A DNA stretch of 63,700 nucleotides, the filler included, from Folioceros fuciformis (Eukaryota), in assembly GCA_049999805.1 (NCBI GenBank). It is 13 parts of 13 records of this genome, joined end to end, with 100 filler letters (N's around TTAATTAATTAA, not from the genome) between each part and the next. Parts side by side here need not be neighbours in the genome. Positions count along the whole stretch, not along the records: positions 40,449 to 46,408 come from JBNGIO010004377.1; 12 more parts are not named here. One strand, given 5' to 3'. The notes under the pieces are model-generated. The model was not told the DNA's origin. It ran no database searches and was given only the letters and a program-made list of their open reading frames with translations. The position numbers and the translations under genes were made by a program. Shown here piece by piece: positions 29,941 to 56,155 of this stretch (the stretch's first letter is position 1; every line of letters begins with the position of its first letter).

Positions 29941-32900
29941 TATCAGGTCTGGTCCATCCACTCAACCATAGCAGGGAACCTACAAGAACCCTGTAAGGTA
30001 TAATCTCCATCTCCTTTTGCTCAGCAGGTGTCTTGGGGCACTGATCTTGTGTCAGGGTAGTCCCCACTGCAGCTGGAGTTGTTGCCGACTTCACATTTTG
30101 CATGTTGAACTTCTCAAGTAATTTGTTCACATAATGCTGCTCGTGGAGAAACACACTTCCCGTCATTGGGTTCATGAGTGCTTGGACACCTAGGAAGAAT
30201 TTGCAAGGGCCCGAATCTGTCATTTTGAATTCTGATGACAAGATACGCTTTACCTCTTTTATCATGCCATCATCGGACCCAAAAATTATTGTGTCGTTGA
30301 CGTACACCGCTAGGTAAGCAGTTCACCCTTTCTTCTTATATACATACACACTGCCATCAGCATCTGATTGCTTAAACCCTCTCCTTACAAGGTATGCATG
30401 TAGCCTCAAGTTCCACCCACGATTTGATTGTTTGAGGCCGTACTACATCTTCTTCAGCCTACAAACCTTGCTTGGGTGCTTGGCATCAATGTAACCTTCA
30501 GGTTGTATCATGTATACCTCTTCTTCAAGGAGGCCATTAAGGAATGCCGTTTGTACATCCATCTGGTGGACATGATAACCTTGCAGGGCAGCGATGGCCA
30601 TGAGTGCTCTTAGTGATGACGCGCGCACAACGGGGGAAAAGGTCTCATTATAATCTATCCCTTCTCTCTGGGAAAATCCACGCACCACTAGTCTAGCCTT
30701 GAACCTAGCTGTAGTGCCATCAGGGTTGAGTTTCCTTTTGAACACCCATTTGTTTGAAATCGGGCTCCTTCCATGAGGTAAATCAACTAATTCCCACGTC
30801 TCGTTCTCAATGAGAGAATCATACTCTGATTGGATCGCTGCCTGCCACTGCTCCTTCTCCGGTGAGTTGATGGCTTCTTTGTAGGATGCTGGTTCACCAA
30901 GGTCTTGGGTTGCTATGAGTATTTGAGCTAGCATGGCATTCGTGTTTACATTCGGCCGTATGTGCCCTTCCATGGCAAGTGGCACTTGACTCCATTCCAG
31001 GGGAGAGCTTGTGTGGTGTATCGCTGACCTCCTAAGCGTAGCAAGCTGACCAGGTTCACGCTGTGTTGGTACATTGGTATCAGCTTCACCCTCACTTGCA
31101 TTGGCCTCAAATGTATCATCAACATCAGTGTCAACTTGTATGCCCTGAGCTGAAGTATGGCGTGGGGCTTGTGGTAGAGCTGCTTGTGGCTGACTCATAC
31201 TTGGAATTATTTGCTCAAATTCAGAGTCACTATCGCTATGGAGTTCAGCAACCTGAGAGTCAGGCATCAGATCCTTCCTCCCCACCTCTCGGGCACAAGC
31301 GGCAACCAACAAGCTGTGTTCATCAAATATACCAACACGAGTGTGAGTAACATGGCCGGAGTTAGGGTCATATACCTTATACCCTTTGATACCCTCAGTA
31401 TATCCAATGAAGGTCATAGCACGGGCCTGGTAATCCAGCTTCCTCTGTTGGGTCTTTGGAATGTGCATATACACACGGCTGCCAAATATTTTCAGATGTG
31501 AAATGGATGGTTTACGACCAGGCCACCGCTCATATGGGGTAGCTCCTATGAAAGAAGAAGTGGGCAAACGATTTTGCACATATGTTGCAGTTTGTACTGC
31601 ATCTGCCCAATAGTGCTTGGATAAACCGGATTGATATAGCATGGCCTTGGCTGCTTCTTGGAGGTATCTGTTTTTCGCCTCTGCCAATGGGATTTGGCTG
31701 GATGTGTGCGAGGAAGTCAGTTGGCGGGCAATGCCAAGGGAACGACAATATGATTGAAAATCGCCGCTAATAAATTCGCCCCCATTATCAGTCCTAAGCA
31801 CCTTGAGAGTTTTCCCGGTTTGTTGTTGAGAAAAATCCACATATTGTTTGAATATTTCTAGAGCCTCACTCTTATGTCGCAAAAAATATGTGACAGTATA
31901 TCTGCTGTAGTCATCAATGACAGCCATAAAGTAAAGGGAACCACCAAGAGATGGTGTTGACATGGGTCTACAAAGATCCGTATGGATCATTTCCAGTAGG
32001 TCAGAGGCACGGTTCTGCTCACCGTTCTTAGGCTTCTTCTTGACCATTTTACTATGGATACAGGCGCCACATAATACATGTGTATCAGTAACCTTCCAAT
32101 CGAGTTTCTCACGGTACAGCTCCTGCTCTGTCATCCGTCTCATCTTTGTGAAGTTTTGATGTGCAAGCCTTGAATGCCACAGGAGCTGAGGATCATCATG
32201 TGTAAGACGTTTGGCCAACATGGCTTGAGATGTTGAATTGGCTTGTGGATTTCCAGCAGGGGATGTGATACAGTCCAGCTTGTATAAATCAGCTTGCAGG
32301 GTACCAAGGGCCAGGATGTGGTCTGTCTGCGTCTCTCGCAGCTCACAGTGGTTTTCGCTGAAAGGGATATTAACCATCCAGTCCTTGCAAAGATGCTGAA
32401 CTGACATTAGATTTTTACACATCTGTGGAACGTGTAGCACTTGGTGAAGCAAGCGGGTGGATCCATCTTGCAGCTGAATTTGCTGGGTGGATCCATCTTG
32501 CAGCTGAATTTGCTGGGTGGATCCATCTTGCAGCTGAATTTGCTCGGTGCCGCAGCCAGCAATTGCAAGTCCACTCCCATCTCCAAGTAGGACAAACTGT
32601 CCAGGTGCATAGGTGTTATAGTTGATAAAGCCTTCTCGCATGTAGCATATGTGCGCGGAGGCACCTGAGTCGACAAACCAATGATCTTGATCAGCCTTGG
32701 TGTGTGCGAGGAACACAGGAAGGATGGTGTTTGGATTTGTCGTTTTGGCCCGGGCAGCAACATGAGCCTCCAATGCTCTCCTCGGCTCCTCGGCCTTTTT
32801 CTTTCTGCAATCGGCATCTATGTGTCCTACAAGACGGCACCAATTACAGGTGAGTTTCCTATGGTTGGGGTTTGGCGGAGCTCGACCTTCATGTGTCTTG

Positions 32901-34947
32901 CCTCTGCCCTGCGATGGTGGTCGTGTGGGAAAGCAGCCACCGCGACCCCGTCTTCCTCCTCTGCCAGCATAAAGGACTTGGCTGTGCGAACCTTAGCCTC
33001 CCCGGCTTGAGTGCATGGTCGCTTCCTCCTCGAGCAAAGCACCAATTGTGTTGGATAAAGACACAGTAGCAGCAGTAGCAGTCCTCAAGCTGCTGTTTTG
33101 TGTGCTGACAAATACCCGGTATTTGTCTGGCAATGACATGAGCAAAGCCACCGAAGCCTGCAACTCCGTGACTGTCGTACCTGCGGATGCCAGCTTCTGT
33201 CTAAGATGGCGACGTGACTGTCGTACCTGCGGATGCCAGCTTCTGTCTAAGATGGCGAAATCGCATCACGTGCTCCTCAACGCTGTCCGTGTCTTTCATC
33301 TTGCAATTCCAAAAAGATCTAGTGGCATGTACCAGGGAGGATTGATTTGTAGTCGCAAACATTCGTGACAAAGCTGTCCATGCCATGTGAGATTCAAATG
33401 CATCATCAATGTGGTGGATCATCGAACTGTCAATGGTAGCCTCCAGTATGGCCCTGACTCTGAGATCTTTCTTGGTCCATGCTGCAACATCGGCCTGCGG
33501 TGCGTTGGCACCTGGCTTAGAAGTTGACCCTACGAGCCCAGACGTCATAATTTGCCCCTGAAAACCTATCCTTGTCCTTGAAATCAAGGCGTGTCACACT
33601 CGCCATGGTAACCCCTTGGATGCGCTGATATGCTGGTGGTTGAGTCAACCAGGTAGGCAGCGTCCCTTGGAGCCACTGCCTTGAGATTGTGAATTTCGAA
33701 GGTGGTGATTTGGAGCGGGCTCTCACAGACGGGGTACTCGAGCGTGGCCCTCTGCTTCTGCCTTGAGGCCTCTCAGCTGAAAGTGATCTCTTCGGAGGCA
33801 TCAAACATGGCCCCAATTTGCATGATGCAGCCCTGGACGGGCAATAATCTGCCGCTCCATGCCTGGTTTTCTGCTTCGTGTGTCAAACTTTGTTTGAGTG
33901 AGGATCTTGGGGTTCCGAGTGTAGGGGCATGGTCACGGCATCCTGCCGGCATGGTTGCTATGGTTGCCCTTCCTCCCACACAGATCAGAAGGGTCGCCAC
34001 GGCCTGCTCTAGCATCAGATGCCGCCGCGGCGCACATCCAAATCACACTGCCGCGCTGCAGCAGCCAGGGGTTGCACCTTGCCTCAGATTGATACCACCG
34101 CGGCCTGCTCCAGCCTTCAATTTCTGCCACTGCTGTTGCAATCTCGGCGTGTGCCTACCAAGGATTGCTGCCACGCCGCTGCAGGGTCTGATCCTGCCAT
34201 GGATTACTGTCGCGCCGCTGCAGGGCCTGATCCAATCATGGATTATTGTCGCGATGCAGTCGCCGTGGCCAGGTCCTGCTTCATCCTTGTGATTCGGCAG
34301 CCTGGAAGCGTTCCTGCCTCCGGAACATCAGGTTGGGCTCACCACGCTTCCGCTGCTGCGGGTTTCTGCCTCAAAAATGCATCTCGTGTCTCAGGGTCTC
34401 AGGGAGCGGGGTGCAAACTGCCATGCCGCACCATACTACGGCAGGCCGTGCTGTGACGCTGTTACAGGGAATGGAATTTCCCTAAATCACACGGCCACGG
34501 CCACAGCCACGGCACCGCGCCCACGGCTCATTGCCGTGCTGCACAATGCCTTCACCATGTCAGGATCTCACCCTGCAGATGCCAGACTCGATGCATTCCC
34601 AAGAATTTGCTGCCTACATTTTCCTTTCTTTCTTCTAAAAAAAAATTAAAGGATCGCAATCTCCTTTAGAGCATCCTGGCGGTAGTGGCTATGCTTGCAG
34701 CGATGCATGGCATCGCTTACCACCTCAGCTCTGATACCATACAAAATTAGGAGAAGCATTTTGCTTGAGAAGAATAATTCATGATACACACATACAAGGT
34801 CTTATGGTTTCGTGCCATATGCAATGGCGGTTAGGTTTGATAATTGAGTCCTTTCACACTAGGCTAACTAGCCCTAGCTATAACTTATTTAACTTAGCTT
34901 AGCTATTAAATGATTGACGCTAGACTACTTCTAAGCTTCACTCAACA
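29941..34947 (-). mobile_element. Ty1/copia element: 5' LTR (34740-34947), PBS (34728-34739), long GC-rich leader, frameshifted gag and PR-IN-RT
   Basis: PBS reverse complement GCTCTGATACCA; FKDKDRFSGANYDVW; WFVDSGAS; HTDLC; RTDNGGEF; KARLVVRGF; DVQTAFL; YVND. Confidence 0.94.
30443..32773 (-). CDS. copia protease-integrase-RT open segment
   Basis: 776-aa open frame with the motifs above and a 10-aa triplication QIQLQDGSTQ. Confidence 0.85.
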   Translation of the reverse strand: MEAHVAARAKTTNPNTILPVFLAHTKADQDHWFVDSGASAHICYMREGFINYNTYAPGQFVLLGDGSGLAIAGCGTEQIQLQDGSTQQIQLQDGSTQQIQLQDGSTRLLHQVLHVPQMCKNLMSVQHLCKDWMVNIPFSENHCELRETQTDHILALGTLQADLYKLDCITSPAGNPQANSTSQAMLAKRLTHDDPQLLWHSRLAHQNFTKMRRMTEQELYREKLDWKVTDTHVLCGACIHSKMVKKKPKNGEQNRASDLLEMIHTDLCRPMSTPSLGGSLYFMAVIDDYSRYTVTYFLRHKSEALEIFKQYVDFSQQQTGKTLKVLRTDNGGEFISGDFQSYCRSLGIARQLTSSHTSSQIPLAEAKNRYLQEAAKAMLYQSGLSKHYWADAVQTATYVQNRLPTSSFIGATPYERWPGRKPSISHLKIFGSRVYMHIPKTQQRKLDYQARAMTFIGYTEGIKGYKVYDPNSGHVTHTRVGIFDEHSLLVAACAREVGRKDLMPDSQVAELHSDSDSEFEQIIPSMSQPQAALPQAPRHTSAQGIQVDTDVDDTFEANASEGEADTNVPTQREPGQLATLRRSAIHHTSSPLEWSQVPLAMEGHIRPNVNTNAMLAQILIATQDLGEPASYKEAINSPEKEQWQAAIQSEYDSLIENETWELVDLPHGRSPISNKWVFKRKLNPDGTTARFKARLVVRGFSQREGIDYNETFSPVVRASSLRALMAIAALQGYHVHQMDVQTAFLNGLLEEEVYMIQPEGYIDAKHPSKVCRLKKM

Positions 34948-36448: not shown

Positions 36449-37589
36449 GGGGCTTGCCCCTAGCTCTTGATTGTAAAGAGTGTGTCTTTCTCTCAACCTG
36501 TCCACTCTTGTTCCTTGCTTGGTCAAGTGCTGTAGGCCGGCCATGTCTCATGGCGTCTGGTAAGGTTGTGGGGAGGAGATACCCAAGAGGGGAGTGTGTT
36601 CCCTTCTTCCTTTTGTTTGGGGTTAGTCTAGTGACTCTTGCCGGGTAGGAGGAGTCCGTAGGGAAGTGTAGAAGGTAGTGGCGTCGTTGCTGGTTGCTGG
36701 TAGTTGTTCGTGTTGGTGCTGGAGTAAGAGAGTGAGTGAAGTGAGTGAGGGAAGTCGCAGATCTGAGAGGTTNNNNNNNNNNNNNNNNNNNNNNNNNNNN
36801 NNNNNNNNNNNNNNNNNNNNNNNNNNNNNNNNNNNNNNNNNNNNNNNNNNNNNNNNNNNNNNNNNNNNNNNNTGCTTGGTCTAGGACCTGCAGTGTGTTG
36901 CCGGCTGTGCAACGTCTGGTAGGATCGCAAGCCGTGTGTTGCCGGTTGTATAGTGTCTGGTAGGATCACAAGGTGTAATGACCAGGGTGTAGGGGCTTGC
37001 CCCTAGCTCTTGATTGTAAAGGGTGTGTCTTTCTCTCAACCTGTCCACTCTTGTTCCTTGCTTGGTCAAGTGCTGTAGGCCGGCCATGTCTCATGGCGTC
37101 TGGTAAGGTTGTGGGGAGGAGATACCCAAGAGGGGAGTGTGTTCCCTTCTTCCTTTTGTTTGGGGTTAGTCTAGTGACTCTTGCCGGGTAGGAGGAGTCA
37201 GTAGGGAAGTGTAGAAGGTAGTGGTGTCGTTGCTGGTTACTGGTAGTTGTTGGTGTTGGTGCTGGAGCGAGAGAGTGAGTGAAGTGAGTGGAGGAAGTTG
37301 CAGATCTGAGAGGTTAGAGTCGTTGTAGTGACTGGAGTAAGTTTGTGGGCACCGAGAGAGGTGCAGCTGACCGCCGGACAGCGAGGCCTGTCCTACGCCT
37401 GATCGGAGCTGGAGGGGAGCCCTCGAATCCATCATCGAGTTGATCAAGTCCGACCCTCCATCCACAGCAGCAAGGAACCCCATCGCTCCTTCGTGGGAAC
37501 GAAACCCAATGTCTCAACGACAGTGGGATAAGTGTGGCCACTAAAGGTGGAACCCGTCGGCAATCAGTGCCCGGGGTTTTGCCTCCACA
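36449..37589. repeat. Long LTR-like repeat ending TCCACA, internally duplicated (36449-36772 = 36992-37313); second locus at 59972-60536
   Basis: Near-identical copies with different flanks after TCCACA. Confidence 0.85.
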
Positions 37590-39157: not shown

Positions 39158-40513
39158 ACCACAGATTGCAGCCCCATTACCCCGTGCTCTTGGCAGGCTT
39201 GAATCCCAGCCCTGCCCGTACCGCACCCCTGGCCGGGCTGCCTCCTAGCCGGAGCTCGTAGTCTTGGTCCGGCTCGCTCCTATCTGCAGCGCGCGGTCTT
39301 GGCAGGGGTGGCAACCCAACCCGCATCTCTGCTCTTGGCAGGGGATCGAGATCGAAGGACAAGGATCGAGGGACAAGGTATAGCATAGCAATGGCTGTAG
39401 GAATGGCAAGTAACGTGGGCTAATGCTACCACTAACTCTTACCTAAGTCAGGACTCATCCATTGCCGTCCCTACTACCTACTAGCTCTACTACTACTATC
39501 GCCAGTTAGCTCAGCTACCACGGACCCTACTCTACAACTGCGGTCTTATGAGATGCTTTCCACACTTGCAAACGCCGATCCTTGCAGAACAAGTCCTCAC
39601 GGATCAGCCACACTCCCTCACACACTCACACCAGTCCCATCACACTATGGTGCGCATTCATTTTTCACAAGCCTTGTCTAGAGGTCTCCAATCCTCTAGC
39701 GATGTCCACGAAAGTCATGACCCACCCCGTTGCTATCCATCTCCTTGGCCAGATCCTTCCCTCCAATCATGCCCATCCAAGCAATTGCCCACCTCTTAGA
39801 TCCCACAGCGCTGCAGGAGAGCCCTGCCGCTGTTGTCTAGTCGCTGATTCAGCCGCACCACCGCCCGATGCTAGGCAATCCAGTCCTCCCCGCCGCCGCC
39901 CGTGGATCCGTAATCTAGACCCAAGCCCCGCTGCCGCTGCTGTGGTCCAACCCGCAGCGCCACCACGGTGCTGCGGTGATTTCTTCCCCCCTTCTCCAAC
40001 CCACTCCTTCGCCATCCCGCCTCTTCCTCCATTCAGTGAACAGGCTATGAACGTGGAAGTTTGATAGAGATGAAAACAAAGATGAATTAAGAGAGGATTA
40101 TTTTCTATTTTGAGGGTTATTTTTCTGGATTTAATTCCATAATTCCATTTCAACTCCGTTTCACCTGCTTTCTTTTCCTCTTAGTTCAAGGCCTCCCCCA
40201 GCACCTCGGGGTCAGTCTTCCATGGCCGACGAACCATTTCGGCTGGAAGCTGATTCCGCTGAATAAGCTATTGTTTTCAGGCCAGGTTCCGGCTGCTGAT
40301 CCCACTCCTTCCCACCTCTTCTCTATCTTTCCCATTGCTCATGCTCCTNNNNNNNNNNNNNNNNNNNNNNNNNNNNNNNNNNNNNNNNNNNNTTAATTAA
40401 TTAANNNNNNNNNNNNNNNNNNNNNNNNNNNNNNNNNNNNNNNNNNNNCATCTACACAAGAAAATTGAATTGCTCACTACTACATCCTTACACCACAATA
40501 AACAAAAAATGTC

Positions 40514-41129
40514 TCATGGCCGAAAAGATCTCATTCCTCTTTGTTGTATATCACTCGGAGGTGCAGGTACGTTAGGACAAGTATCTAGCTGAGATGAAGT
40601 AGAAAACTTAAAATAACAATCTTGTACAAGAATGGATCCTTCACTAGGTGTTCCTATGCAAAGGAGATAAAGAAGGCGTTGCCCTATAGTATTCAAACAT
40701 GTTAGACAATCTACCCAAGTCGCCATGGAAACACCGTCTTTGTAGCAAGTAACAACCCCCCAAAACGTAGGACCATTCGGCAACAAGGGAGTTCTGAAAG
40801 ATCTGTAGTGAGGAAGNNNNNNNNNNNNNNNNNNNNNNNNNNNNNNNNNNNNNNNNNNNNNNNNNNNNNNNNNNNNNNNNNNNNNNNNNNNNNNNNNNNN
40901 NNNNNNNNNNNNNNNNGTCCTTAAGTTTCAAAGTAACCATTGTAAGCTCGTTGAATGCTGCTTGAACAAAATCTCTTTCAACTTTTGATGTCAGTGGAGG
41001 CTCTCCACAGTAATGCTCAATTAAGGTTATGATAGGCACTCCCTGACCTTGTAGAGAAGAGAAATAGATTATCAATGGCATTACGTATATAAAGTTGATA
41101 GAATATATAATCTTGGTTTTATTCCTCAT
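40514..41129 (-). CDS. Secreted cysteine-rich DUF26/Gnk2-like protein, paralog 1 (spans N gap 40817-40916)
   Basis: Hydrophobic N-terminus; HYC; GVVTCYKDGVSMATWVDCLTCL...LC...G.ILVQDCYFKFS; clearly paralogous to 42692-43162. Confidence 0.75.
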
Positions 41130-42691
41130 ATTTCTAAGTAATATGAGACACCACTCTTCTTGCCACTAAAACACTAGGAAAACTGACCTTTACGATTTCA
41201 ATTTTGCATTACCATACAAAATTCGTAGATGGTTTTAATGTAAGCGTTGAGACACTTACATTAAAACAAATCACATATTTCTTCCGAAAACAAAAACAAT
41301 TCTACTTCTATGATTTATTCTTGGAGAAAAACAATAATTAACAAAATATAAGCGATATCACATAAAATTCTATCACACAATAAAATATATGTATCAAAGG
41401 TTGGTTCAATATATGTATGTCGAAACATAAATTACTATGCAATGTTCGTTTTGCCTTAGGTTATATTCCTCTTATTGTCATAATTTTTTCATAAAAAATT
41501 GAAAAGAATCTTTTGATTTTTTGTAAAAGAATATTTTAAGTGGAAGAATAATAATTTTAAAATAAAATTCCTTAGAAGTAAGTGAAGTTTTACTTCTTAT
41601 TTTTTTCTAGGGTATATAGGTCCTTTCAAGTTGGTTGGGACTCATTTTTTGGTCACATATTTAAGATTAAATATAAAGTTATATACATAGGTTGGCAAAG
41701 AGAGACGGTGTCAACAACTCTAGTGGTAGGTAGACCTTTTTCTTTTGGATTATGATATTTTAATCTTCTTTTCAATTATGATATTTATATGTGCTATTGG
41801 TAGTCATTAGGTTTCAAAAGGTTGGCCCCTAGTGTCCCTATTATGATTTATCTCCTTCTTTTGATTATGATATTTTATGTGCTATTGGTAGTTTTTAGGT
41901 TTCAAGAGTTAGCCCCTAAGGTCCCAATTATGATTTATCTCCTTTGTAATGGTAGATAGGTAATAAGAGTATCGCCCTATCCCTATTACTCTTCGCCCTC
42001 TTTATCAAGGTACGGACACATTATCGACTATTTTTTTTTAATTCCTGAAATTGACCCATAAATCTCATTGACCATTTTAATCTATCTTATGATTTTGTGG
42101 TCACAAAATAGACACTTTTCAAAAATCTTTGAGAACTTGGTTGTTTGGTTGGATTCACTTCAAGCACATTGTGCCTTACATATAAGAGAAGCCAAGGCAA
42201 GATGGATTGTGGTTTGCATCCTTTTTCACCTATGAGAATTTGTTACTAATATCTCCTCATTTTCCTAATAAAAAAGATAGAGGGATTAATTACTCTTTCT
42301 ACTTTACGCACCTAGTAGAACAAATGTGTGTACTTATCCATTTGTGCATTTTGGGTTTATGGAGCTTTTGGTTGCTAGTATTGTGATGCGATTCTAATCT
42401 CAAACTTATCAAAAACTTATGAGTGACATTAGACAAATGTTTAGTGACATTGCTGCAATAAGATAAGAAAAAAGGCAAGAACTAATGAATGATTCCAGTT
42501 GTGGGCTTACTAATGCGTCTCCTTCCTTTGTTGATAACTCAATGTCTCATACAAGGACATAAAAATTATAATTTTTCATACCTCTAACCTTCTCTCATAG
42601 TAGTTGTTGATTAGTGTAAGCTATTAGCTTACTGGATCAATAAGCTTTTTGAAACTATTAAAATATCTCTAAAGATAAAGGGATTGTAGCT

Positions 42692-43162
42692 TTAAGGTGG
42701 GTCGGGAACATATGGACAACTCTCCAATTCACCCAAAGAATAGTGGATGTAGCAATCCATCACAAGATTTGAACCTGCATGTGGGATTCCTCGACATAGT
42801 TGGTACAACAGCTCCATCTTGATTAGATTCAAGCAATAGAAACAATCAGCCCATTGACTCATAGTGATATGATTCTTGTAACAAGTAACCACACCCACCA
42901 CCTTTGGAATGAATGTCGATTCTGGAGCTATGTAGGCTTCGTAAAATGGTAGACCATTTGGCCTTTCGAATGCTGGTCTAGCATTTTTTATCAGTTGATT
43001 CAATGCAATTGGGATGAACAAGCGAACCGCAGGAGTAGTAACAATTGGGAGCTCACAATTATGGTGAACGCGTTTCATATTAGGTGATGCATTCACTGGA
43101 CTAATGTAACATAGTAGCGATAACATTGAAACGTAGCTATAGATGAGATGGAAGCTTATCAT
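42692..43162 (-). CDS. Secreted cysteine-rich DUF26/Gnk2-like protein, paralog 2 (156 aa from ATG 43162)
   Basis: Signal-peptide-like MISFHLIYSYVSMLSLLCYISPVNA; GVVTC-X12-C-X2-CL...LC...G....DCYIHYS follows the Gnk2 cysteine layout with a longer first loop. Confidence 0.78.
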   Translation of the reverse strand: MISFHLIYSYVSMLSLLCYISPVNASPNMKRVHHNCELPIVTTPAVRLFIPIALNQLIKNARPAFERPNGLPFYEAYIAPESTFIPKVVGVVTCYKNHITMSQWADCFYCLNLIKMELLYQLCRGIPHAGSNLVMDCYIHYSLGELESCPYVPDPP

Positions 43163-43715
43163 TCTTTTGGAGATGTAGACCGTGTTTAGGGATGAAAAGT
43201 AATGGGCGACCTGATGGAAACTGCATTTGTCTCCCGGACTTAGGGTCGTCTCGAAGTTTGTCCAGCATGAACGAGGAATGAGCACCTAGAATCAAACGCA
43301 AGGCTGGCCGGTAGGAAGAGTCCAGCCCGGACAGATACAGGAAGAAAGTATCAAATGAATAATATTGAATGCCTCGGTTTGTTTTTAGCGAATTCACTGT
43401 AGGTTTAATTGTGGAGACGGCTCGAGTCCCGACATCCATGGTGCATCGTCTCCTACTTTGCACTACCTACCCCCGACCTGCCATCAAATTCTGTACTCGT
43501 CCTCAGTCTTGGGTTGTGGGTCTTGAAGGTGCTAGGAAGTGGGAAGGGTCTGCTCCGTTGTCAGATCTCTCAGGCCTCTTTGAAGCAAGTATTTGTAGTT
43601 CGTGTTCACTGCTCTGTTTTGCAGACCTGTGGCAGGGTGCGGGAGGCTTACAGGTGTGCTTGCGATCGTCACTCAAGGAGCTGCTGTTCTCGTTCTGTTT
43701 GATTCACATGTAGTG

Positions 43716-46408
43716 ATGAAGAAGGCCTCTGCGTTGCACGGTAGGGAAGGGCGGCTTGTGCATTGCAATTTTGGTGGTGGTGCAGCCTTGTGGATGTGCG
43801 TGTTGCTCACGATCACTTCGCTGGGAAGCAAGGTCGGTGCAGAACTCTCTCCCGATGGACGGCACCTGCTGAATTTTCTACAAGACAACACTTTAGTTCT
43901 GGACCATAGCTTGGCCTTCGCAAGCTGGAATGCGAGCGAGGATACGCCGTGTGATTGGGTACGGGTATTCTGTAACCCCGAGTCCGCTGTGCGCAGGCTC
44001 GATCTTTCCTCCTGCACTGTGTCGGCGTTGCCCGACCCGGACCCGTCGCTTTCGTTTTTTGTCAGGAATCTCAATCTATCCCAGTTGGGCTATCTTCGAA
44101 GCCTTCAAGAACTGGACATGTCGTCCAACCGTGAAGTGGGTGGCAACGGTGATGACTTCCAGTCCTTGACTGGGCTCACATGGCTGGATCTTTCCGGATC
44201 TTATTTTCGCGTAGGGGGGTATTCAGATATCCTACCCGCCCTTCCCAGCCTCCAGTATCTGCATGCGGACGAGACCGCATGGAGTGGGGTTTTCATCCAG
44301 AGCTTCGGCGGGATGCGGGAGCTGCTGGTGGTCTCTCTTGCAAACAATTTCGAGGGAGACACCATACCTAAGGAAGTGGGGAATCTGACCCAACTCAAGA
44401 ACCTGGATCTGTCTAGTAATTCCTTCATTGGAGGGATCCCCAGTTTGGAGGGACTTACACGCCTCACCCAACTCTCTATACGCAGGAACCAGCTTAGCGG
44501 GGATGTTCCCACTGCACCCAATCTGCAATACCTGGACGCGGCTGAAAACAATCTCTCGAGCTTGACGCATTCCTTCTTCCAGATGTCCGCTCTGAAGCAG
44601 GTGAATCTTTCCCGGAATCAATTTGTGGGACAACTACCGGACATGAGGCTCAAGCTCAAGCTTCTTGATGTGTTGGATCTGTCCTGGAACGGTCTGCAGG
44701 GTCCCATCCCGTCCGGATTGGGGAACGTGACGCACCTGGACCTGTCTCACAACAACTTGTCTGGCCCCATCCCTCAGGATATCCGTACTTACCCCCTCTC
44801 GAATGTGTACGGATCGGTAGATCTTTCTGGGAATGCGCTGAATGGCAGCATTCCTGCCAGTTTGCTATATGGAGCACACTTCCTGAATCTTTCAAGAAAT
44901 TCTCTGGCTGGCAACATACCAGGTGCTCCGGGAGGTTTGGAGGTTGGACTATACGGTCATGTTGATCTGAGTGACAATCAGCTTGATGGCCCTCTTACTC
45001 TCTCTTTCCTCAGACTTGCTCCACGAGTGCTGTGGCTTCAAAACAACAGCTTCTCTGGTGACTTGATCATCCCTCTCACCCAGGCTTCGATGTACAACTT
45101 CAATCCCAATACTATCCGAGTACAAGGCAACAGTTTCACTGGGGACATCACTCAGTTGCTGAGCAACTCTGGGATGCGGCTGCATTCCTATCTCATGACA
45201 GTTTTTGACTTGAGCCACAACCGTTTGAACATGACACCTTCACACGAGTTCCCCGATCCTTTGCGGAGCCTGCTGGACATGTTCTGTGGGGATAAGGCAC
45301 CTATAATGGAATTTCGGCTGGCAGGCAGCGATCTCATGGGCCAACAATTTCCGGATAGCTTCCAATGTCCCACCCTGCTCCGATTCCTCCAGATCTTGGA
45401 TCTTGCGTCTTTGCAACATGAGCGGACCATTTCCACCTTACGCGTTTCCAATGTCGAGTCCAGCCTGACGTTTCTCAACATGTCCAACAACAGGCTGTCT
45501 GGACCCCTTCCTGAAATGTTACCCGACACCATCACCGTACTGGATCTGAGTAACAACAATTTGGTTTCCGAGGGAGGGATGCCACCTGACCTTTTTACAG
45601 GGCTCCGAAACTTGGTGCATTTCAATGCATCCACCAACAGGCTATCCGGCCCCATTCCAGGAACCTTTCCTCCCACTCTCCGAGTCTTGGACCTTAGCCA
45701 CAACAATCTGACAGGACCGATACCCGGTAATGTTTTCTATGCTTTTCTTCACTTGGAATACATCAACCTGTCAGGCAACAATCTCTCAGGAGTCCTTCCA
45801 GACGACCTGTCTCCGGCTGTCTTTAACGCACGCTCCTTTGCGGACAATCCGGGACTCTGCGGCGGACCTCTTCCCGCGTGTGCCCCCCCAACCCCTCTAC
45901 CTCCTACCAGTCGGATCAATGTGCGGCTGCTTGTGGCAGTAGTAGTTGTCGCTGTATTGGTTTCTACGGGAAGTTGCTTGCTCCTGGTCTGGACATGGAG
46001 AGTGTACTCCAAAAAGCACCAGCAAGATGCGGACTTGATTGCCACGCTGCTGGAGAGGGAAACGGTGACAGTGATGCCCCTTCGCCAGCTCCGCAGACCC
46101 ACCTCCAACTTTTCAGAGTCGGCCCAGATTGGAGTGGGCGGCTTCGGCACAGTCTACACTGGCAAGCTCGCTGACGGCACACGGGTAGCCATCAAGAAGG
46201 GCAAGCGGGAGGGCTCCCCCGAGTACAAGCAGCAGTTTCTCAACGAGGTCAAGATTCTGTCCGGAGTGAATCACAGGCACTTGGTGAAGCTGCTGGGCTG
46301 TTCCATGGAGAACAAAATCGCTCTCCTCGTCTTCGAGTTTGTCCCCAACGGCACACTGCTGGAACATCTCCAGGGGAAAAGAGAAGGATTTTCCCCGCTC
46401 ACTTGGAG
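43716..46408 (+). CDS. Leucine-rich repeat receptor-like kinase, intronless, 3'-partial
   Basis: Signal region; N-cap SWNASEDTPCDWVRVFC; ~20 plant LRRs (LxxLDLSxNxLSGPIP); C-cap FADNPGLCGGPLPAC; TM VRLLVAVVVVAVLVSTGSCLLLVW; kinase IGVGGFGTVY, VAIKK, NHRHLVKLLGC. Confidence 0.96.
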
Positions 46409-47052
46409 NNNNNNNNNNNNNNNNNNNNNNNNNNNNNNNNNNNNNNNNNNNNTTAATTAATTAANNNNNNNNNNNNNNNNNNNNNNNNNNNNNNNNNNNN
46501 NNNNNNNNTATTGCCTCCAAATTTTATACCAAACCATCTTTGTCTTAGCATCGTACTAACTCCATGGATGCTTTCCTAGATACAACTCCCATCACTTTCT
46601 CTAGTGCTTGAGTTCCCTTGCCAAAACTTCATTGCTTTGACATCCCTCCAATCCAAGGGGTTTGGTAATAGATGGCATTGAGCACCCTAACATGAGACAT
46701 GAAACACAAGGGCACCAAAAAGCTTGTAGATACATGCATTTAAAACTTGTAGTTTCCATCTACAAATATACGCATAAATATATATGGACAAAAAAAAGCC
46801 TTGAACCCATTCCCTTCCCCTNNNNNNNNNNNNNNNNNNNNNNNNNNNNNNNNNNNNNNNNNNNNNNNNNNNNNNNNNNNNNNNNNNNNNNNNNNNNNNN
46901 NNNNNNNNNNNNNNNNNNNNNAAAAATTGCTTTCTTGCCTTCTAGACTAAGAAGGCGGGGGTATTTTCCATGATTGAAAAAGAGATGGAAAGTCCCATCT
47001 ACTCCAAAGATTGGAGGAACAACCCCATTAGAGCCAAAGGCAAAAAGAGGTA

Positions 47053-47378
47053 TGTGGACTCCACATCCTGAATAGGTCCTTGGAAAATGGTAGGATATCT
47101 CTTTTTGGGAATCTCTAAGTGAACCCTGTGGTGAAATAGTTAGAAGATTAGTAAAGATTAGTAGCTAGATTAATGGGGAGGTGAGATGTGTCTTTGAAGG
47201 GTTGCTGGAATGATCTGAAAGAAGGGATGGAATGATTTGAGAGAGGAGGGAGAGGGTTGAGAGGCACTGACCATTTTGGTAGTCTTGAGAGGTTGGTCAA
47301 TTTTGGTAAGGGCACCCAGTGGTGTCCATGGGACACAACCCCTTTCAGGTCAAAACTAGGTTTGGGTCAAAGTTAGGG
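47053..47378 (+). repeat. 5' part of a gypsy LTR (TGTGGACTCCACA...), target of an inverted same-family insertion
   Basis: Near-perfect reverse complement of ~48352-48676. Confidence 0.88.
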
Positions 47379-49235
47379 TGTGGAGTGAAACTTGCACCCA
47401 AGAACCACCAAGGGGCCACACTTCCCCTTATTATCGTTGCAGTCTTATGATTCGCTCCCAAGGGAGTGAACTAATGTCAAGGTTACCTACATCTCCCTAA
47501 TCTCACCCTATCTATCAGCATATACCAAGTGCTACAGCAATAGGTCAGAAGTCTCGGTCCTGTCTTCAGCTCCTACCACAACACCAACCCCAGCCTCAAC
47601 AAAATGAGAACTCCAGCATTGTCTTCAGCCTTCATTTCCAGCTCCAAGTATCAATCACTTCAGTGCTAAGAGGAGGCTCCAGCCCCAAGTCTGGCCTTCA
47701 ACTCTCAGCACCTAGTGCTAGCTACCTCCGCAGCTGAACGAGAACCTCAGCTTCAGCTAGCTCCTCACTCCAGCTCCAACACTTCATTCCACCACTTCAG
47801 CACTTCACTTGAGCACTTCAGTCCTTCACTTTAGCACTTCAATCCTTCACTTCAGCTCAACTCCTCACTTCAACACTTCCACTTCCAAAATCTGCAACTT
47901 CTCTAAACCCTTCTCTCCTGCAATTTGGAACACAACAGCCTTCCCTCTTGCAGCCTTCAAGGCAAAGGCAAGGCCTAGGGCTGGGTAGCCTCCTTGGCTC
48001 ACGGCCCTGCAACCTCACCTCAGCCAGTATGCAAGGTGGTCAGCCATTGCGGATCCGGCCACACGAATCTTGGCAGTCTTGGGATCCTCCACGTTCCCCT
48101 AGTGGCAAGGGAAATCAAGACCTTGGTTTAGTCTCAACCAGCTCAGCGCCCTAAGCCAGGAGTTCTGCACCCAAGGTCTAGGGAAATCGCACCGTAGACA
48201 GCCCCCTCCTCAATGGCAGGTCTAGCCTCTTATACTACCTTGGCCCAAACCTCCATCTCTATCTATTAGGGTTAGCCTCAGTCAACCACCCAGCAATCTC
48301 TCTCTGACCTAAGCCGGCCCTAATTCTGACCTAAACCTAACTCTGACCTAACCCTAACTTTGACCCAAACCTAGTTCTGACCTGAAGGGGGTTGTGTCCC
48401 ATGGACACCACTGGGTGCCCTTACCAAAATTGACCAACCTCTCAAGACTACCAAAATGGTCAGTGCCTCTCAACCCTCTCCCTCCTCTCTCAAACATTCC
48501 ATCCCTTCTCTTAGATCATTCCAGCCACCCTTCAAAGACACATCTCACCTCACCATTAATCTAGCTACTAATCTTTCCTAATCTTTTAACTATTTCACCA
48601 TAGGGTTCACTTAGAGATTCCCAAAAAGAGAAATCCTACCATTTTCCAAGGACCTATTCAGGATGTGGAGTCCACATACTCCCCTTCTCATTTGTTGGCG
48701 TTCTCGCCAACTACTGATAATATTTCTTCACCCGCCAGCCATTAACCCTAGTTGGCAAGTTAGGGCCGTTGAGGTGCTGCAGTTGGATGGACCCATTCTC
48801 ATACACTTCCAGCACCCTCTAAGGTCCCATCCATCTCAAGTGCAGCTTACCTGGAAAGTGCATGTACCTATTGTCATATAACAAGGCTAAATCTCCAGGC
48901 ACAACATACTCTTGTTTACGCAACTTCTGGTCGTGCCACTTCTTCCTCCTCTCCTGAACATCAAGGAAAACAGCCAAGGCCCGTTCCCTGTCCTCATCAT
49001 GCTGCACAAAACTGGTTAGCCTCTCCAGCTGGCTCTCCTCCACAGGCAATCGATTGCTCTCCTGCATTCTCAAGGTAGGTACCTCAAATTCGATAGGCAT
49101 GATCGGTGAGTGTCCATAGGTGAGGTAATAAGGGGTCTGCTGGGTAGTAACCTTCTCAGCAGTCCTGTATGCCCACAAGGCTGAGTGGAGTTTCCTATCC
49201 CAGTCATGAGCATAGGTGACGGTGAGTTTGCTGAG
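47379..49235 (-). mobile_element. Ty3/gypsy 3' end: integrase C-terminus, PPT and complete ~1.3-kb 3' LTR (47379-48676)
   Basis: WAYRT...TPYYLTYG...GKLHLRWMGP (GPY/F region); PPT GAGAAGGGGAG on the minus strand next to 48676; termini TGTGGA...TCCACA. Confidence 0.9.
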
Positions 49236-49519
49236 NNNNNNNNNNNNNNNNNNNNNNNNNNNNNNNNNNNNNNNNNNNNTTAATTAATTAANNNNNNNNN
49301 NNNNNNNNNNNNNNNNNNNNNNNNNNNNNNNNNNNAGTTGGGTTCATACTAGACTAGTTCTAGTTATTAGTGAACTTAGGATAGTGTAGATTATCCCATA
49401 TTGAACCTGGAAGTTGTGTAGCCCTAAATGTACTACNNNNNNNNNNATACCACCCTCTCTTCTCTCCTCTCCTCTCCTACACTTGCACGTAGACTGGAGT
49501 CGATCCTATTGACGTGCAT

Positions 49520-50170
49520 GTGGTCATAGCAAAACGTTTTGAAAGCATTGACCTGGTGTTTTCTATTATAGACTTAGAATTGGACATAAGTACTATGTCA
49601 TCTACATATACGTCAAGAAGAATGAAGTGGCTGTCTAATCTATTGATATAGATATGGCTATTAGACTCTAACCTGGAAAATCCTAGTGCTGCTAAGGTTT
49701 TATCTAACTTGGCATACCACTCCATAGCACTTTGTTTTAATCCATAAAGTGACTTCAATAATAAACAAGTATTATATAGTTTCCTGTCAACCTTTTACCC
49801 TTCAGGTATCTCCATATATCTGTTGGAGGTCACCATAGAGAAAGGCAGTTTTTATATCTAATTGCATGAGCTCATAATCATGGTGAGAAGCTAGTGCTAT
49901 GAGGGTTCTAAGTGAGGTGATCTTAAATACTGGACTAAATGTCTCATCATAGTCAAATCCGTACTTTTGTGAGTAACCCTTAGCGACTAATCTAGCTTTA
50001 TACCTTTCTATGCTACCATCCGCGTTTAACTTGATTTTAAATGTCCACTTAGACCCTACACGTTTTCTTCCTAGTGGTAAGGTGGTAAGAGTCCAAGTTT
50101 TATTGGCTTTTAAGGAGTCTAACTCTGATTTGATTGCTATCTTCCAATTTTCTCTTTCTGGCATGTGATG
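49520..50170 (-). pseudogene. copia RT pseudogene, interrupted by an LTR-like repeat (49336-~49519)
   Basis: RYKARLVAKGY, DIKTAFL, LYGLKQS and YVDD. Confidence 0.9.
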
Positions 50171-50370
50171 GCTTTCTGATAGTTAGCTAGGACAAACTAA
50201 TCGATTACAGCAAATAGGCAGTAAGCTAAACTGTTCTTATGATCCCTCCAATTAGTGGGTGAGTATCTATGGATCTAACCTGCATTGCTACATTGAGTGC
50301 GTCTTCCTCTTGTGTGAAAAATATTCAATGGCTATATTGCATTTGCATCCAAGTCCTTAGAGTTGATGTC

Positions 50371-53330
50371 TGTTGAATGCTGAAAAAGTGAGATGTTGGA
50401 GAAGATGATGAGAAGTCATGATGAGATGAAGAGATGAGTCTGAAGTGTGCAGGTATGTGTTGAGAGCACGAGACACGGGTTGCTGCTGGCGATGTGCTGA
50501 TCGCACTCAAGTATGCGTGCGCGAGGAGTCTGTGCGCGCTTGCGATGAAGTTGCTGTAGGGTTATTAAAGCCCAATGTGCTTAGACTAATGTGTTTAGTC
50601 TAAGATTAGTGTCTAGTTAAGTATCATTTGTTTAGATTAGCTTAAGCTAATCTTTAGGAAGCTTCTTGCGCAGCTTCTTGTGAGCTTCTTGTGAAGCTTC
50701 CTTGGGAGCTTTTCTAGAAGGTATAAATACCCTCTTGAGCTCCCTTGCAAGTGAGACAGACCTTTCTTTCTTCTCTCCTCCTTCATCATGTAGCTCCCCT
50801 AACGATCCTTCAATTGGTATCAAAACTGAGGTTATGAAGCAAGAGGGTGATGGCTGTAGGTGTTGCAACCAAGATGCACAAAGGCGCAACAAGGCCGTGA
50901 GGAAGGCACCGGAGTGAGGGCAGCATCCTGGGGGCCCATGTGCGGCAACCCTGCTGCCCGTGCTCGCGCGCGGGCCGCGACAGCGACAGCACGAGGTGCT
51001 TGCCCTAGCGCGAGGCACTAGGCCCCCCCTTAGCACGGGGCGTAGGGCGCGAGGTGCCGAGGTGCCTGCCCCAGCGCGGGGAGGGGGGGTGTCTCGCACC
51101 CCCCTTAGCGTAGGGTGCAGGCACCTGCGAGGGTGCCGTCGTGCCTTTCGGGGCACCCGCTTGAGCTGTGCGAGCGCCAGGTGGGGCGCAGGACAGAGGC
51201 CGCACCGTGTAGGGGGATGGCAGCCCCGTCGCACTAGGCGCAAGAAGGCGGGCGCAGCGAGGCATCAGCCGCAGGAGGGTGCCAGGCCGTCTAAACCCTG
51301 GTGCGTGGATCGCAGTGATCGGAACGCTAGGTCGCCGCGGTGTAGACAGCGAGGCGTTAAATTGCGTTGCACCGAGGGTAGCCAGAGTCGCAGGACAGTC
51401 CACGCCGCGAAGAAGGAAGGCTGTTACAGGGTTCCGAACACTGCGAAGCAGCAAGAATAGTGCATTTGGCCGTGACAAGAACGGTGGTGCTGATCGTCGA
51501 GATTGTGGACAGACTCTTGCGATGGTTTGAGGTCTACAAGTTGTGTTAGCCGATGCGAAACAAGGCGTGATTACCATAAGGGTAACTTTCAGAATCTACA
51601 TTATATTCAGACCGTTTCTAACTAGCCTTTGTTTGATTTGCATCGATTTTAAAGGATGACGTCCTCAAAAAACATAATGTTCAATATCGAGAAGTTAGAT
51701 GGTACTAACTTCCCATTCTAGAAAGAACAAGTGTATAATGTTTTAGCGCAGAAAAAGCAGATCAAACCCATAAAGTTGCTGGGTGTGAAACCTATTAGCA
51801 TGACTCAGGATGAGTAGCAGGATCTAGATGAGCTTGCTAGATATGCCATCATGCTAACATTGTCGAAGTCGGTCTACTTCAATGTGAAAGACAAGACCAC
51901 AAGTTACGAGCTATAGCAGAAGTTGTGTGACCTGTACGAGAAGCAAAGTGCGGCTTCTCAAGTGTACTGGTTGAAACAGCTGGTGGACTTGAAGATGAAA
52001 TAAGGGACGAGGATATCCGATCATTTGAATGAGTTCAATACCATTTTCGACCAGCTCTCATCTCAAGGTATCTTGTTCTCAAATTCCGTGAGAGCTATGT
52101 TTCTGTTGGTCACCTTACCAGAGAGTTGGGACACCTTTCGTACAGCTCTAAGTAATTCCGCTCCTGCTAGTGGTCTCACCATTGTAAATGTAGAAGGTAG
52201 CCTGTTAATAGCAGAGGAGAACAGGAAGAATATGGAACCTTTGAAAGGTTCCAATGCTCTCATGGTGAGAGGATGTCCACTTCAAAGGGGAAGCAAAAGG
52301 AGCAAAGCCTTTCTCGTAGCAAATCTCATAGTCGTAAAAATGTTGAGTGTTATCATTGTCACAAAAAGGGTCACATCAGAAGGGACTGCAAGAAGTTCAA
52401 GAGGGATAAAGGAAAGGAGAAGAAGCAGAACGACAACAAGGCAAGTCCGAGTATCAAGTCTGACGAGGTGAATTTTGTTGATGATGGAGATGTTTTTATC
52501 TCTTCTTTCTTAGATTCTGTACAATTGGTAGCCTTGGATAGTCACTTATTCTCTAATTGGATAATTGACTCTAGAGCATCTTTCAGAGGGAGCGGTTTAG
52601 CACCTATGATGCTACTAGGAAAGGATGTGTTCGGCTTGGAAATAACTATGCATGCAAGATTGCAGGCGTTGGTGATGTGCAGTTAAAGTTTGACAATGGA
52701 TCTTCATTCATATTGAAGGATGTTAGGCATGTTCTGAAGTTGACCAAAAGCATGATTAGCGCAGGGTAGTTGGATGACCACTGTTGGTTTGGGAATCATT
52801 CTTGGAAGATCTCCAAAGGTTCTCTTATTTTAGCTCGTGGATCGAAGTGTGGCACTTTGTACTCACTTTAGATAACCACTGTCAAGGATCATGTGATTTT
52901 TGTAACAAAACAGCCAAATGTTTCCTTGTGGCATTGTCAGTTAGGACATCTCTCTCAAAAAGGAATGAAGATCTTATCTCGTTTTGGTTACGTCTCTGCT
53001 TTTGACTTCTCCGATTTCTCCATGTGTGAGCATTGTTTGTATGGGAAACATACGAAATCTCCACATGGAGCAAGAGGTAAACACAAAAGTATACCTCTTG
53101 AATTGGTTCACAGTGACGTTTGTGGACCTATGCCCACTACATCATTATGCAGTGCATCCTATTTTCATAGATGATTTCTCACGCAAGGTTTGGGTTTATC
53201 CTTTGAGGAAAAAGGACGATATTCTGACAGTGTTTCAAAAATTCATCACCCTTGTGGAGAATCAGTCTAGCCTCCGACTAAAGTGTCTTAGGACAGACAA
53301 TGGTGGAGAGCATGTTTCGAAGGCTGATGA
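50371..53330 (+). mobile_element. Decayed Tnt1/Tork-like copia: 5' LTR 50371-50812, mutated PBS 50815-50826, GC-rich leader, gag-PR-IN from ~51656
   Basis: TGTTG...TTCA; TGGTATCAAAAC; IEKLDGTNF; LPESWDTF; CYHCHKKGHIRRDC; WIIDSRAS; WHCQLGH; HSDVCGP; RTDNGGE; many TAG stops. Confidence 0.92.
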
Positions 53331-53470: not shown

Positions 53471-56155
53471 AATGTCTGTTGGGTTTGCAGCTGTTGGCAC
53501 ATACTCCAAATCAATCTGTCCAGATTTGATCAAGTCAAGCCACCAGGACTTGGCCCCGATCTGCTCCCGTCAACCCGGCTAGACGGTCAGCCAGGCTTTC
53601 CAGATCCGCCAACAACCCGCCTGCTCATCGACCAGCTAGCCGTCTGCCCGATCTCTGCTAGTCCTCGAGCTGTCTGCCTGGCTTGGGTCCAGCGCCGCCC
53701 CTGGCTTGGGTCCAGCGCCGCCCCTGGCTTGGCTTGCAGCCTGATCCGCTGGCTGGCCGCTGATGGCCGGCTCAGCCTCTGCTACCTGGCCCAAGTCCAC
53801 CCCGGCCAGCTCCTGCAAGCCGGGCGGCTTGCCTGCTAGCAGCCCAACTTGGCCAGCCGCCATGGGCTCCTCCATCCCCAGAGGCCGCAAACCGGCCTCT
53901 TGCCTGCCGGAATCCGCCAGCGTGCTCCCGAATCATGTAGCTACTGAGCCACCTGCCGGCCTGCCGATTCAGTCTCGGCTGCCTAGCAGTCGAGCGCTTG
54001 CCCAAGGGTCGCCTGCCCACCACGACCCAGGCCAGTCTGCCTGGCTGCTTGGGTTCCTGCAGCCAGTGACTGCCTGGCTTACCCGGCCGCCTTGCTGCCT
54101 GATTGATCGTGCCCGCCTCTTGGATCCGGCAGCCTTGCCTGGCTGCCTGGCCGGGCAGGGCTGCCTGGCCGGCAGGGCTGCCTGATCCTCAACCAGCTGC
54201 TGCTAGGCCAGCAACTTGTGAGGATCCCTCCCCGGCCTGGACTTCCCCCAGCTGGCCGCCTACCAAAGGCCGCAAGCTAGCCTGCTCTCCTTCCAGATCC
54301 GGTCAGGCAGCCAACCTGCTCGGCCTGGCAGCTTGCTTGATCCGTCCGCCAAGAGCCAACCCCTCTACACATCCCCTGATCCAGCCAGGGGGCCACCTGA
54401 GCCCACTGGCTAGCTAGATTCGGCTGGGAAGTCAGCCAAACCTGGCAAGCCCCCCCCTTGCCAACGTGCTCGTGTGCCTAGGCTTGCCTACTGGCTAGCC
54501 CGACCTGGATCTGGCTAGGCAGCCAGCCCACAGGGCGGCCTTCTTCTCCCGCACCTGGTTAGGTAGCCGTCTTGCACTAGCCCGCTTGCGCGATTCCCCT
54601 GGCCATCGCCCGCTGGCCGAGGCCGTCTAGCCAGAGGCCGCTAGCTGGCCTCCGGACTCTAGATCTTGCCAGGCAGCCAGCCTGCTCGGCCTGGCTGCTT
54701 GCTGGATCCACCTGCCTAGAGACCAGGCTAGCCTGCCTGGCTGCTTGGGCTCCTGCAGCCAGGCCGGTGCTTGGCTTCCGGATCCAGTAGGTAGCCGGCC
54801 TGCCGATCGACACCCCTCCGGCCAGGACTCCCCTGGCCAATCTGCCACCCTAGGCGACTGCCCGGCTGCCTGGATCCGCCTGCAGGCTGCCCTTGCCGCT
54901 GGGGCGCCGGCCAGCTCCTCAGCAGCCGCTGCCAAGCTACCTAGCGACTGCCTGGATGCCTGGCCGAAATCGCCTGCTTCTGGCCTGCCCGCTTGCTGGC
55001 TGGCGATCCGGCCAGCGCCTGTCTGGGTCCGCTGTGACGAGTCGTCATGACCCAGCCCCTGTCCAGCCAGCCTTCTGGTTGCTTGGTCCAGTTGCAACCA
55101 GCCCGGCTCCAGAATCGGGCGGGCAGCCGTCATCTGCCGCCGCTCGTTAGATCTCTCCACCGCCAGCCACCCCACCGACCGGATTTTGGCCTACCCACCT
55201 GCTTGGCTAGNNNNNNNNNNNNNNNNNNNNNNNNNNNNNNNNNNNNNNNNNNNNNNNNNNNNNNNNNNNNNNNNNNNNNNNNNNNNNNNNNNNNNNNNNN
55301 NNNNNNNNNNCCAGCCAGGCAGCCCGCCTGCTTGGCCTGGCTTCCTGCTGAGCCGCCTGGCTCCTACAGCCAGGCACTTCACCCCCGAGTCCTCCCAATC
55401 AGCTCCCCGCGCTGCAGCCATCAACTGCCCGACTCAAGCCCACCCCGGCCAGCTCCTTGCAAGCCAGGCGCCTTCCTGCTATCAGCCCGACTTGACCAGC
55501 CGCCATGCCTGATCCACTCAGGCAGCCGGCTTGCTGGCCTGCCTACCTTCGTCCCGGCCCACTCTTGTGGTCGGTCCGACTCCTAGTTCCCTGACCCTGT
55601 TGCCAGCCCAACCGGCCCTGGCTGCGGCTTGCATGCAGCTGGCCAACCTGGCTGCTGGTCAGGTTCCTCAGCACCCAGGGGGCCCCTGGCTTGCTTGTGC
55701 TACCTATTCAAATGGGCTGGGCTAGGCTGTCTAGCGTTCCGGCCAAACCCGCTTGGATCGCTTGCCGGGCGACCTGCCCCTCAGCACCCGCTGCCATCCA
55801 TTACCGCTTGGATCAGCCCAAGGCCCGTCTGGCCTGGATCTAGCGCCGCCTCAGGCTGCCTGCCTGACCACCTCTAGCTGCAGCCAGCCAGCGGCCGCAT
55901 GGCGATCCGACCAGGCCCACCTACCAGGATCTGCCCAACCAGCCGCCCGTTCTGCTCCCCCGTTACCTTATCCCGAGGAACCAGAGCCCGTGCCCTATCT
56001 ACCACACAACCTACCTACTCTATCGACTCACCATAAATCTAGCTACTATTCTAGCCTAATCCCCCAACCTTTCCTCTACAACACTCACTCACAGATCCAA
56101 AAAAAAAGAAAACCTATCCTTAACCCAGGGGTCTGTTCAGCATGTGGAGTCCACA
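53471..56155 (-). repeat. Very GC-rich low-complexity LTR-like region ending in the TGTGGAGTCCACA terminus
   Basis: TTCAG.ATGTGGAGTCCACA at ~56136-56155 matches the gypsy LTR terminus at ~48657-48676 and abuts a copia RT. ORFs here are compositional artefacts. Confidence 0.6.

Follow-up and report, generated by a model that had tools for sequence, protein, structure and literature searches.

Two DUF26-fold genes beside an LRR receptor kinase gene in Folioceros fuciformis, probably incidental neighbours

Does a small cysteine-rich gene that lies head-to-head with a receptor kinase gene encode a partner of that receptor? The question is raised by a locus of Folioceros fuciformis (assembly GCA_049999805.1), at which two small cysteine-rich genes, A and B, adjoin a leucine-rich repeat (LRR) receptor kinase gene. 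The locus lies in a stretch of 63,700 nucleotides (nt), hereafter the window, in which 13 pieces, each assembled separately, are linked through 12 copies of one 100-nt spacer. All three genes are found on one piece, 40449-46408 (5,960 nt; JBNGIO010004377.1). An earlier note on this DNA had placed both A and B head-to-head with the receptor and had read the three genes as a candidate ligand/decoy-receptor module. The two paralogous minus-strand cysteine-rich open reading frames (ORFs) and the plus-strand LRR receptor kinase are present; however, only A is head-to-head with the receptor, and B is a tandem neighbour located about 1.5 kb behind A. The nearest ATGs, at 43162 and 43716, enclose 553 nt, as had been stated. 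We consider it likely that the A/B tandem pair is an incidental neighbour of a receptor that belongs to an expanded family. Contigs from two sequencing runs cover parts of the locus: X1, a DNA run, and X3, a run from a different study that was guessed to be RNA, with no matching run recorded as RNA.

40514-41129, minus strand: gene B, tandem paralogue of A, about 179 amino acids from the ATG at 41129 and shorter from the ATG at 41081 (ORF, alignment, X3 contig)
42692-43162, minus strand: gene A, intronless ORF of 156 amino acids (P0001) with a single DUF26/Gnk2-fold domain (ORF, alignment, model)
43163-43715, no strand: divergent intergenic stretch, 553 nt, 49% G+C (sequence; X1 contig 42986-44194)
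43716-46408, plus strand: receptor kinase, 897 codons (P0002), intronless where covered (ORF, domain matches, X3 contig)

Genes A and B

Protein A has cysteines C36, C94, C107, C110, C123 and C137, and an extra C149. Its N-terminus, about residues 1-25, is hydrophobic and helical, as judged by eye and in the model, with no signal predictor applied; no 19-residue window of A reached a hydropathy of 1.6, the strength of a membrane segment. We infer that A and B may be secreted. Gene B is interrupted by a gap of 100 N at 40817-40916, which an X3 contig spans with 24 letters, so that the frame stays open. The C-terminal part of B shares 48% identity with that of A over 87 amino acids (E 7e-28), and the N-terminal part of B also aligns to that of A.

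Neither protein reaches the gathering score of the Pfam family PF01657: A gave no match, and the C-terminal part of B, with the N-terminal part left out, scored 17.4 bits against a cut-off of 25. Of 1.84 billion representative sequences, 29 matched a profile made from A and pieces of B at E ≤0.001. Two repetitive partial matches, P0051 and P0062, were dropped, and the 27 others were combined with A and the C-terminal part of B into an alignment of 29 rows. Twenty of the 27, and two more, are unnamed single Logan records, with no named record among the 20 that were looked up; the 27 may be paralogues, relatives or both. The family has a median pairwise identity of 25%, and at least 27 further members lie under about 50% identity. 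The 29-row profile matches PDLP8, PDLP5 and Gnk2 at E 1e-10 to 2e-08, the last value being that of Gnk2, with which six cysteines are aligned. PF01657 is matched by 18 of the 29 members at E ≤0.1 (best 4.5e-06). A word-index search with A gave none of four candidates, and the same search with the 29-row alignment gave only two proteins, both already included; a 3-row profile had no matches in the PDB.

The AlphaFold2 model of A has a pLDDT of 92.6. Its best Foldseek match is Gnk2 (E 8.9e-07), and an exhaustive aligner superposes it on Gnk2 (4xre) with a Z of 14.8 and a root mean square deviation of 1.9 Å over 107 residues. The PDLPs follow in this ranking, then the fungal lectins Y3 and LDL, and the next unrelated row has a Z of 4.6. 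The earlier assignment to the DUF26/Gnk2-like family is thus borne out by the profile matches to Gnk2 and the PDLPs and by the structural match, and we regard the modelled Gnk2/DUF26 fold of A and B as settled. Atlas leads for A (fungal, ribonuclease-like), all below 0.9, were rejected, since the fold search points to DUF26; atlas leads for P0047 included none that was usable.

The core motif, C-X12-C-X2-C, is present in A, B and 26 of the 29 rows, and C-X8-C-X2-C in none; A and B are therefore filed as a DUF26 variant and not as canonical members. A seventh cysteine, located after the domain, is also found in 26 of the 29 rows. Six members, P0045, P0046, P0049, P0052, P0053 and P0056, are set apart as a subgroup by an initial 'PP.CG' and by a lengthened loop that follows the fifth cysteine.

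In Gnk2, the mannose-binding residues, which we take to be Asn11, Arg93 and Glu104, correspond to E37, S131 and S142 of A; across the alignment, Asn is absent from all 28 rows compared and Arg from all 29, and Glu occurs in a single row of 29. For the mannose residues Glu130 and Arg132, in precursor numbering (PMC6368629), the equivalents according to our own mapping are kept in neither A nor B. Because these residues are lost, the mannose-lectin analogy to Gnk2 drawn in the earlier note is weakened, although the fold is the same.

The catalogued single-DUF26 genes of Marchantia polymorpha (M. polymorpha) are a tandem pair, Mapoly0130s0016/17. Their proteins have C-X7-C-X2-C and lack the seventh cysteine. 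Spacing in the core motif is thus loose in bryophytes, with C-X7 in Marchantia and C-X12 in A and B. A published description of the C-X12 subfamily was not found; subscription papers or supplements may contain one.

The receptor kinase

The receptor is described by three parts, all of which are present, so that the LRR receptor kinase call is upheld.

43842-45899, plus strand: LRR ectodomain, residues 43-728 (domain matches, model)
45924-45995, plus strand: transmembrane helix, about residues 737-760 (hydropathy)
46113-46408, plus strand: kinase start, with the Gly-rich loop and the VAIK lysine, to about subdomain V (domain matches)

The ectodomain has an N-cap (C79/C86), about 20 LRRs and a C-cap (C715/C722), together with several low-confidence loops, the longest at about residues 554-603. 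The gene is truncated at 46408 by the end of the scaffold, early in the kinase. The catalytic loop lies beyond the end of the window sequence, and HRD is found in the consensus of the relatives. An X3 contig, 43713-46307, matches the receptor with 0 differences and no intron.

Residues 690-897, used as a query, matched 32 proteins. Of the first 17, 16 are LRR kinases and one is a shorter record; the named ones all come from Riccia, Marchantia and Calypogeia, among them MpRLK-Pelle_WAK_LRK10L-6, and the lower-ranked matches are mostly wall-associated kinases (WAKs). A kinase tree was made of 39 rows and 112 columns, from which L050 (69 aligned residues), one of 39 BLAST matches, was excluded. 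The receptor falls in a 30-row clade of liverwort-type LRR kinases and WAKs (92/90), apart from a cysteine-rich receptor kinase (CRK) and an S-domain kinase (SD1) (98/93). Its kinase is 60-76% identical to the liverwort-type LRR rows, 45-57% to the WAKs and 40-43% to CRK/SD1. Compared with 14 relatives, identities are 29-39% for the ectodomains and 59-77% for the kinases. By sequence, the receptor combines LRRs with a WAK-type kinase and belongs with liverwort proteins, and its named homologues place this DNA in a liverwort. MpRLK-Pelle_WAK_LRK10L-6 and the Riccia and Calypogeia relatives have the same layout, in which an LRR ectodomain is followed by one membrane helix and a WAK-type kinase. 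The kinase part is 71% identical to that of MpRLK-Pelle_WAK_LRK10L-6, the ectodomain has diverged (39%), and the M. polymorpha neighbours differ.

Among the X1 contigs placed on the scaffold, 54 of 109 are less than 90% alike to it, and the contig depth, near 10 over A, climbs over the kinase part of the receptor; the receptor family thus has many copies here. A functional study of the liverwort LRR-WAK family was not found in the literature, though subscription papers or supplements may contain one. The available parts of PMC10834447, PMC11906373, PMC12890914, bioRxiv 2022.12.28.521631, PMC9213367, PMC12512272 and PMC8076897 hold nothing on LRR-WAK receptors or on the C-X12 subfamily. The receptor is a member of an annotated, apparently unstudied liverwort family. 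A non-LRR motif (M..E.PDP.R-like) at about residues 500-515 of P0002 (about 45215-45260) is kept across the liverwort LRR-WAK ectodomains and is a candidate contact island for a ligand or co-receptor.

The kinase type bears on one alternative, in which the locus preserves the state that preceded the gene fusion at the origin of the CRKs. These are thought to have arisen when a single-DUF26 gene was joined to the portion of an LRR kinase that spans the membrane and the kinase (PMC6368629). The kinase, however, groups with WAKs and apart from the CRK/SD1 rows, the genes are divergently oriented, and no DUF26-kinase fusion was found among the 29 matches of a search free of length limits. As the kinase is not of the type given as the CRK donor in PMC6368629, and as the tree largely refutes the idea, we rejected it; it is hardly credible.

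The junction and the chance of adjacency

Is the adjacency real? One error-free X1 contig, 42986-44194, spans the start of gene A, the intergenic stretch and the start of the receptor. This contig and another, 41575-43000, overlap across gene A and the junction with 0 differences, which places the A-receptor junction in the reads. An assembly chimera could be suspected in a fragmented, gapped assembly with an exact 6.9-kb duplicate elsewhere in the window. There is also a G+C step across the junction, and X1 is perhaps the assembly's own sample, in which case its bridging is not independent. With the two overlapping contigs against it, we hold a chimera to be very improbable. The G+C contrast between the ORFs, 41-42% for A and B (0.29-0.39 at third codon positions) vs 53% for the receptor (0.62), fits separate histories. 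Among the matches listed, there is no exact X1 contig that links B to A (41046-41575). Runs X5 and X6, from other organisms, had no contigs matching the scaffold, a result that may be false. Contigs of X3 match the receptor ORF and gene B, with none on A or between A and the receptor; as contigs give no information on absence, strand or level, this is no more than a lead.

The surroundings of the three genes end at the edges of their piece.

40349-40448, no strand: scaffold-joining spacer, left edge of the piece (spacer identity)
46409-46508, no strand: scaffold-joining spacer, right edge, which cuts the receptor off (spacer identity)
41749-41944, no strand: direct repeat of about 100 nt (85% similarity) in the A+T-rich stretch that separates A from B (sequence and X1 depth)

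Over the direct repeat, the X1 contig depth is 6-10 times that of its flanks, and the repeat is probably a small dispersed element. No transposon ORFs were found on the piece 40449-46408; all those of the window lie on other pieces and say nothing about the neighbourhood of A, B and the receptor. The "TE-rich region" described earlier, rich in transposable elements, is an artefact of scaffold joining.

The favoured reading is that two independently evolving cell-surface families would lie side by side at this locus. A and B would be an old tandem duplicate within a divergent, single-domain DUF26-fold subfamily. Both would be apoplastic and would have three disulfides, C36-C123, C94-C107 and C110-C137, paired by homology with the pairs that we take to exist in Gnk2. 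Like other DUF26 proteins, they would bind a glycan or a microbial protein, with mannose excluded as the ligand. The conserved seventh cysteine, left without a partner, would most likely join two subunits; two single-domain chains held together in this way might make up for the second domain that each lacks. The receptor would sense a protein or peptide ligand of its own, as LRR receptor biology suggests, and the head-to-head placement would be incidental.

How often would chance produce such a placement? The genome total is taken as about 19,000 genes. The other input was a count of 234 receptor kinases (PMC10868138). With 10-27 DUF26-like genes, the rough probability that at least one lies divergently beside a receptor kinase of any type is then 6-15%, so that a scan of many windows would meet such cases often. 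Chance adjacency of A and the receptor is plausible. The tandem arrangement of A and B is itself usual, as DUF26 genes commonly form tandem clusters (PMC6368629).

The module would lead one to expect the same pairing in relatives. The gene ids of M. polymorpha do not show it, in a comparison of homologues that are not proven orthologues and by a method that would miss unannotated genes. By id, the closest named receptor, Mapoly0042s0003, stands between genes whose annotations read PEPC-related kinase and UDP-glucuronate epimerase (PMC11799827). It lies about 1,100 gene numbers away from the DUF26 pair on scaffold 130, as estimated from neighbouring ids. A third annotated DUF26 gene, Mp1g00450, has, among the entries listed, a DUF716 gene on one side and a ricin-B lectin gene on the other (PMC12890914). 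The lectin gene beside it, Mp1g00460, is an accessory gene and pathogen-induced (PMC12890914), a hint that secreted defence genes may be loosely clustered in liverworts.

Several points weigh against incidental neighbourhood. The Marchantia receptor is only a homologue by identity (ectodomain 39%, kinase 71%) and the Marchantia DUF26 genes belong to a subtype other than C-X12, both of which make the comparison weak, and the neighbours of Mapoly0130s0016/17 were searched for and not found. If only about 15 LRR-WAK genes are counted, the chance of divergent adjacency falls to 0.4-1%. Finally, 553 nt is short for two independent plant promoters with their leaders, so that some shared regulation is plausible.

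This last point leads to the alternative that one bidirectional promoter serves both A and the receptor, which would be induced together in defence while their products act separately. Such a promoter, proposed in the earlier note and by us inferred from distance only, agrees with the 553-nt divergent spacing confirmed in the DNA contig, and both families are linked to defence in other plants (PMC9521807, PMC10868138). On the other side, TATA-like matches are missing from the plus strand of the 553-nt stretch, and the minus strand has a single weak one. By eye, a pyrimidine-rich, acceptor-like end with AG lies just 5' of the receptor ATG, and the X3 receptor contig starts beside this AG, at 43713, which is likewise no more than a lead. 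The acceptor-like end suggests a leader intron. With the pairing unseen in M. polymorpha as well, we consider the shared promoter rather unlikely.

A stronger claim is that the genes form a linked bait or ligand module. In it, the LRR ectodomain would recognise the DUF26-fold protein, be this a single chain, a dimer or a carrier of a microbial molecule, and signalling would pass through the WAK-type kinase. Adjacency is the sole evidence for such a module as earlier proposed, and the proposal was not sustained by the gene-id comparison. The fast divergence of both parts (DUF26-like median 25%; ectodomains 29-39% vs kinases 59-77%), the known role of DUF26 proteins as baits for fungal proteins (PMC9521807) and the small-family chance estimate of about 1% are in keeping with it. 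The absence of a conserved pairing in M. polymorpha is not, and no linked or head-to-head DUF26/LRR-kinase pair was found described in the literature by title or abstract start. At 80 metagenome loci around plant receptor kinases, which are non-orthologous and serve as background only, no stand-alone DUF26-like gene matched the profile; two of the loci held CRK ectodomains. The receptors of these loci have a best-segment identity of 28-59%, and the six included in the tree (L001-L005, L030) fall outside the liverwort clade. A complex prediction for mature A and the ectodomain scored 0.00 and gave no answer, as alignments were not used and the partner fold is uncertain; it counts neither way. 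Taken together, we give the module little credence, and we return to incidental neighbourhood as the preferred explanation.

The other pieces of the window contain several repeats. Another identical spacer lies at 13841-13940, and claims of neighbourhood across any of the 12 spacers are void. Two copies of a Ty1/copia-type element, 1-6915 and 6926-13840, are 100% identical over 6,915 nt with 10 N between them, and the pair at 1-13840 is probably an assembly duplication. The two copies share an in-frame stop, located between the integrase and reverse-transcriptase parts, and each has a 247-codon ORF on the other strand. Further copia-type gag-pol ORFs, broken or incomplete, are found on other scaffolds, at 30443-32992, 49477-50182, 52004-52686 and 55735-57214. 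A repeat of about 570 nt that resembles a long terminal repeat (93-97% alike) occurs on two scaffolds, twice on one of them (36449-37589, 59972-60536). A 330-nt inverted repeat, 97% alike, has its arms about 1 kb apart (47050-47379 and 48351-48679), and possibly represents the ends of a non-autonomous DNA transposon.

Likeness to known systems and significance

Linkage, co-evolving haplotypes and binding have all been demonstrated for Brassica SCR/SRK. As there, a gene for a cysteine-rich protein, here putatively secreted, adjoins a receptor kinase gene at the present locus, and physical linkage is found here too. The Brassica pair, however, consists of a defensin-like ligand and an S-domain receptor, whereas the present one is known from the adjacency of its genes.

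The closest likeness of A and B is to Gnk2 and the single-domain CRRSPs (PF01657), with which they share a single domain in a protein of putatively secreted type, the fold and six aligned cysteines; the M. polymorpha CRRSPs also share the tandem arrangement. A and B differ in having C-X12-C-X2-C in place of C-X8-C-X2-C, a conserved seventh cysteine and replaced mannose-site residues, and their identity to Gnk2 is 19-23%. Rice OsRMC/CBMIP and maize AFP1, apoplastic double-DUF26 proteins that bind fungal proteins or glycans (PMC9521807), may serve as a functional model, with two domains per chain there and one each in A and B. Among the DUF26 proteins of rice are binders of fungal enzyme modules and several that bind neither these modules nor mannose; single OsRMC domains bound neither ligand (PMC9521807).

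One speculative idea would join these observations. Liverworts, which are without CRKs, might have built a split equivalent, in which seven-cysteine DUF26-fold proteins form disulfide dimers, possibly A with B, that bait a microbial glycan or enzyme and are read by the divergently transcribed LRR-WAK kinase, all within one co-regulated unit of recognition. By analogy, a dimer of A with B would possibly copy the double-DUF26 unit that flowering plants need for binding. We rate this idea as improbable, a shade below the simpler module. If a module did exist, it would show how a bryophyte can connect a DUF26 sensor with a kinase while the genes stay separate, and it would provide the first ligand for an unstudied liverwort receptor family.

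Independently of any module, the C-X12 DUF26-like subfamily is modestly new, with a cysteine pattern of its own, mostly weak Pfam scores and fast evolution, and its seventh cysteine offers a testable idea of dimerisation. With at least 27 further members, compared with the two catalogued single-DUF26 genes of M. polymorpha, it widens the known range of the DUF26 fold.

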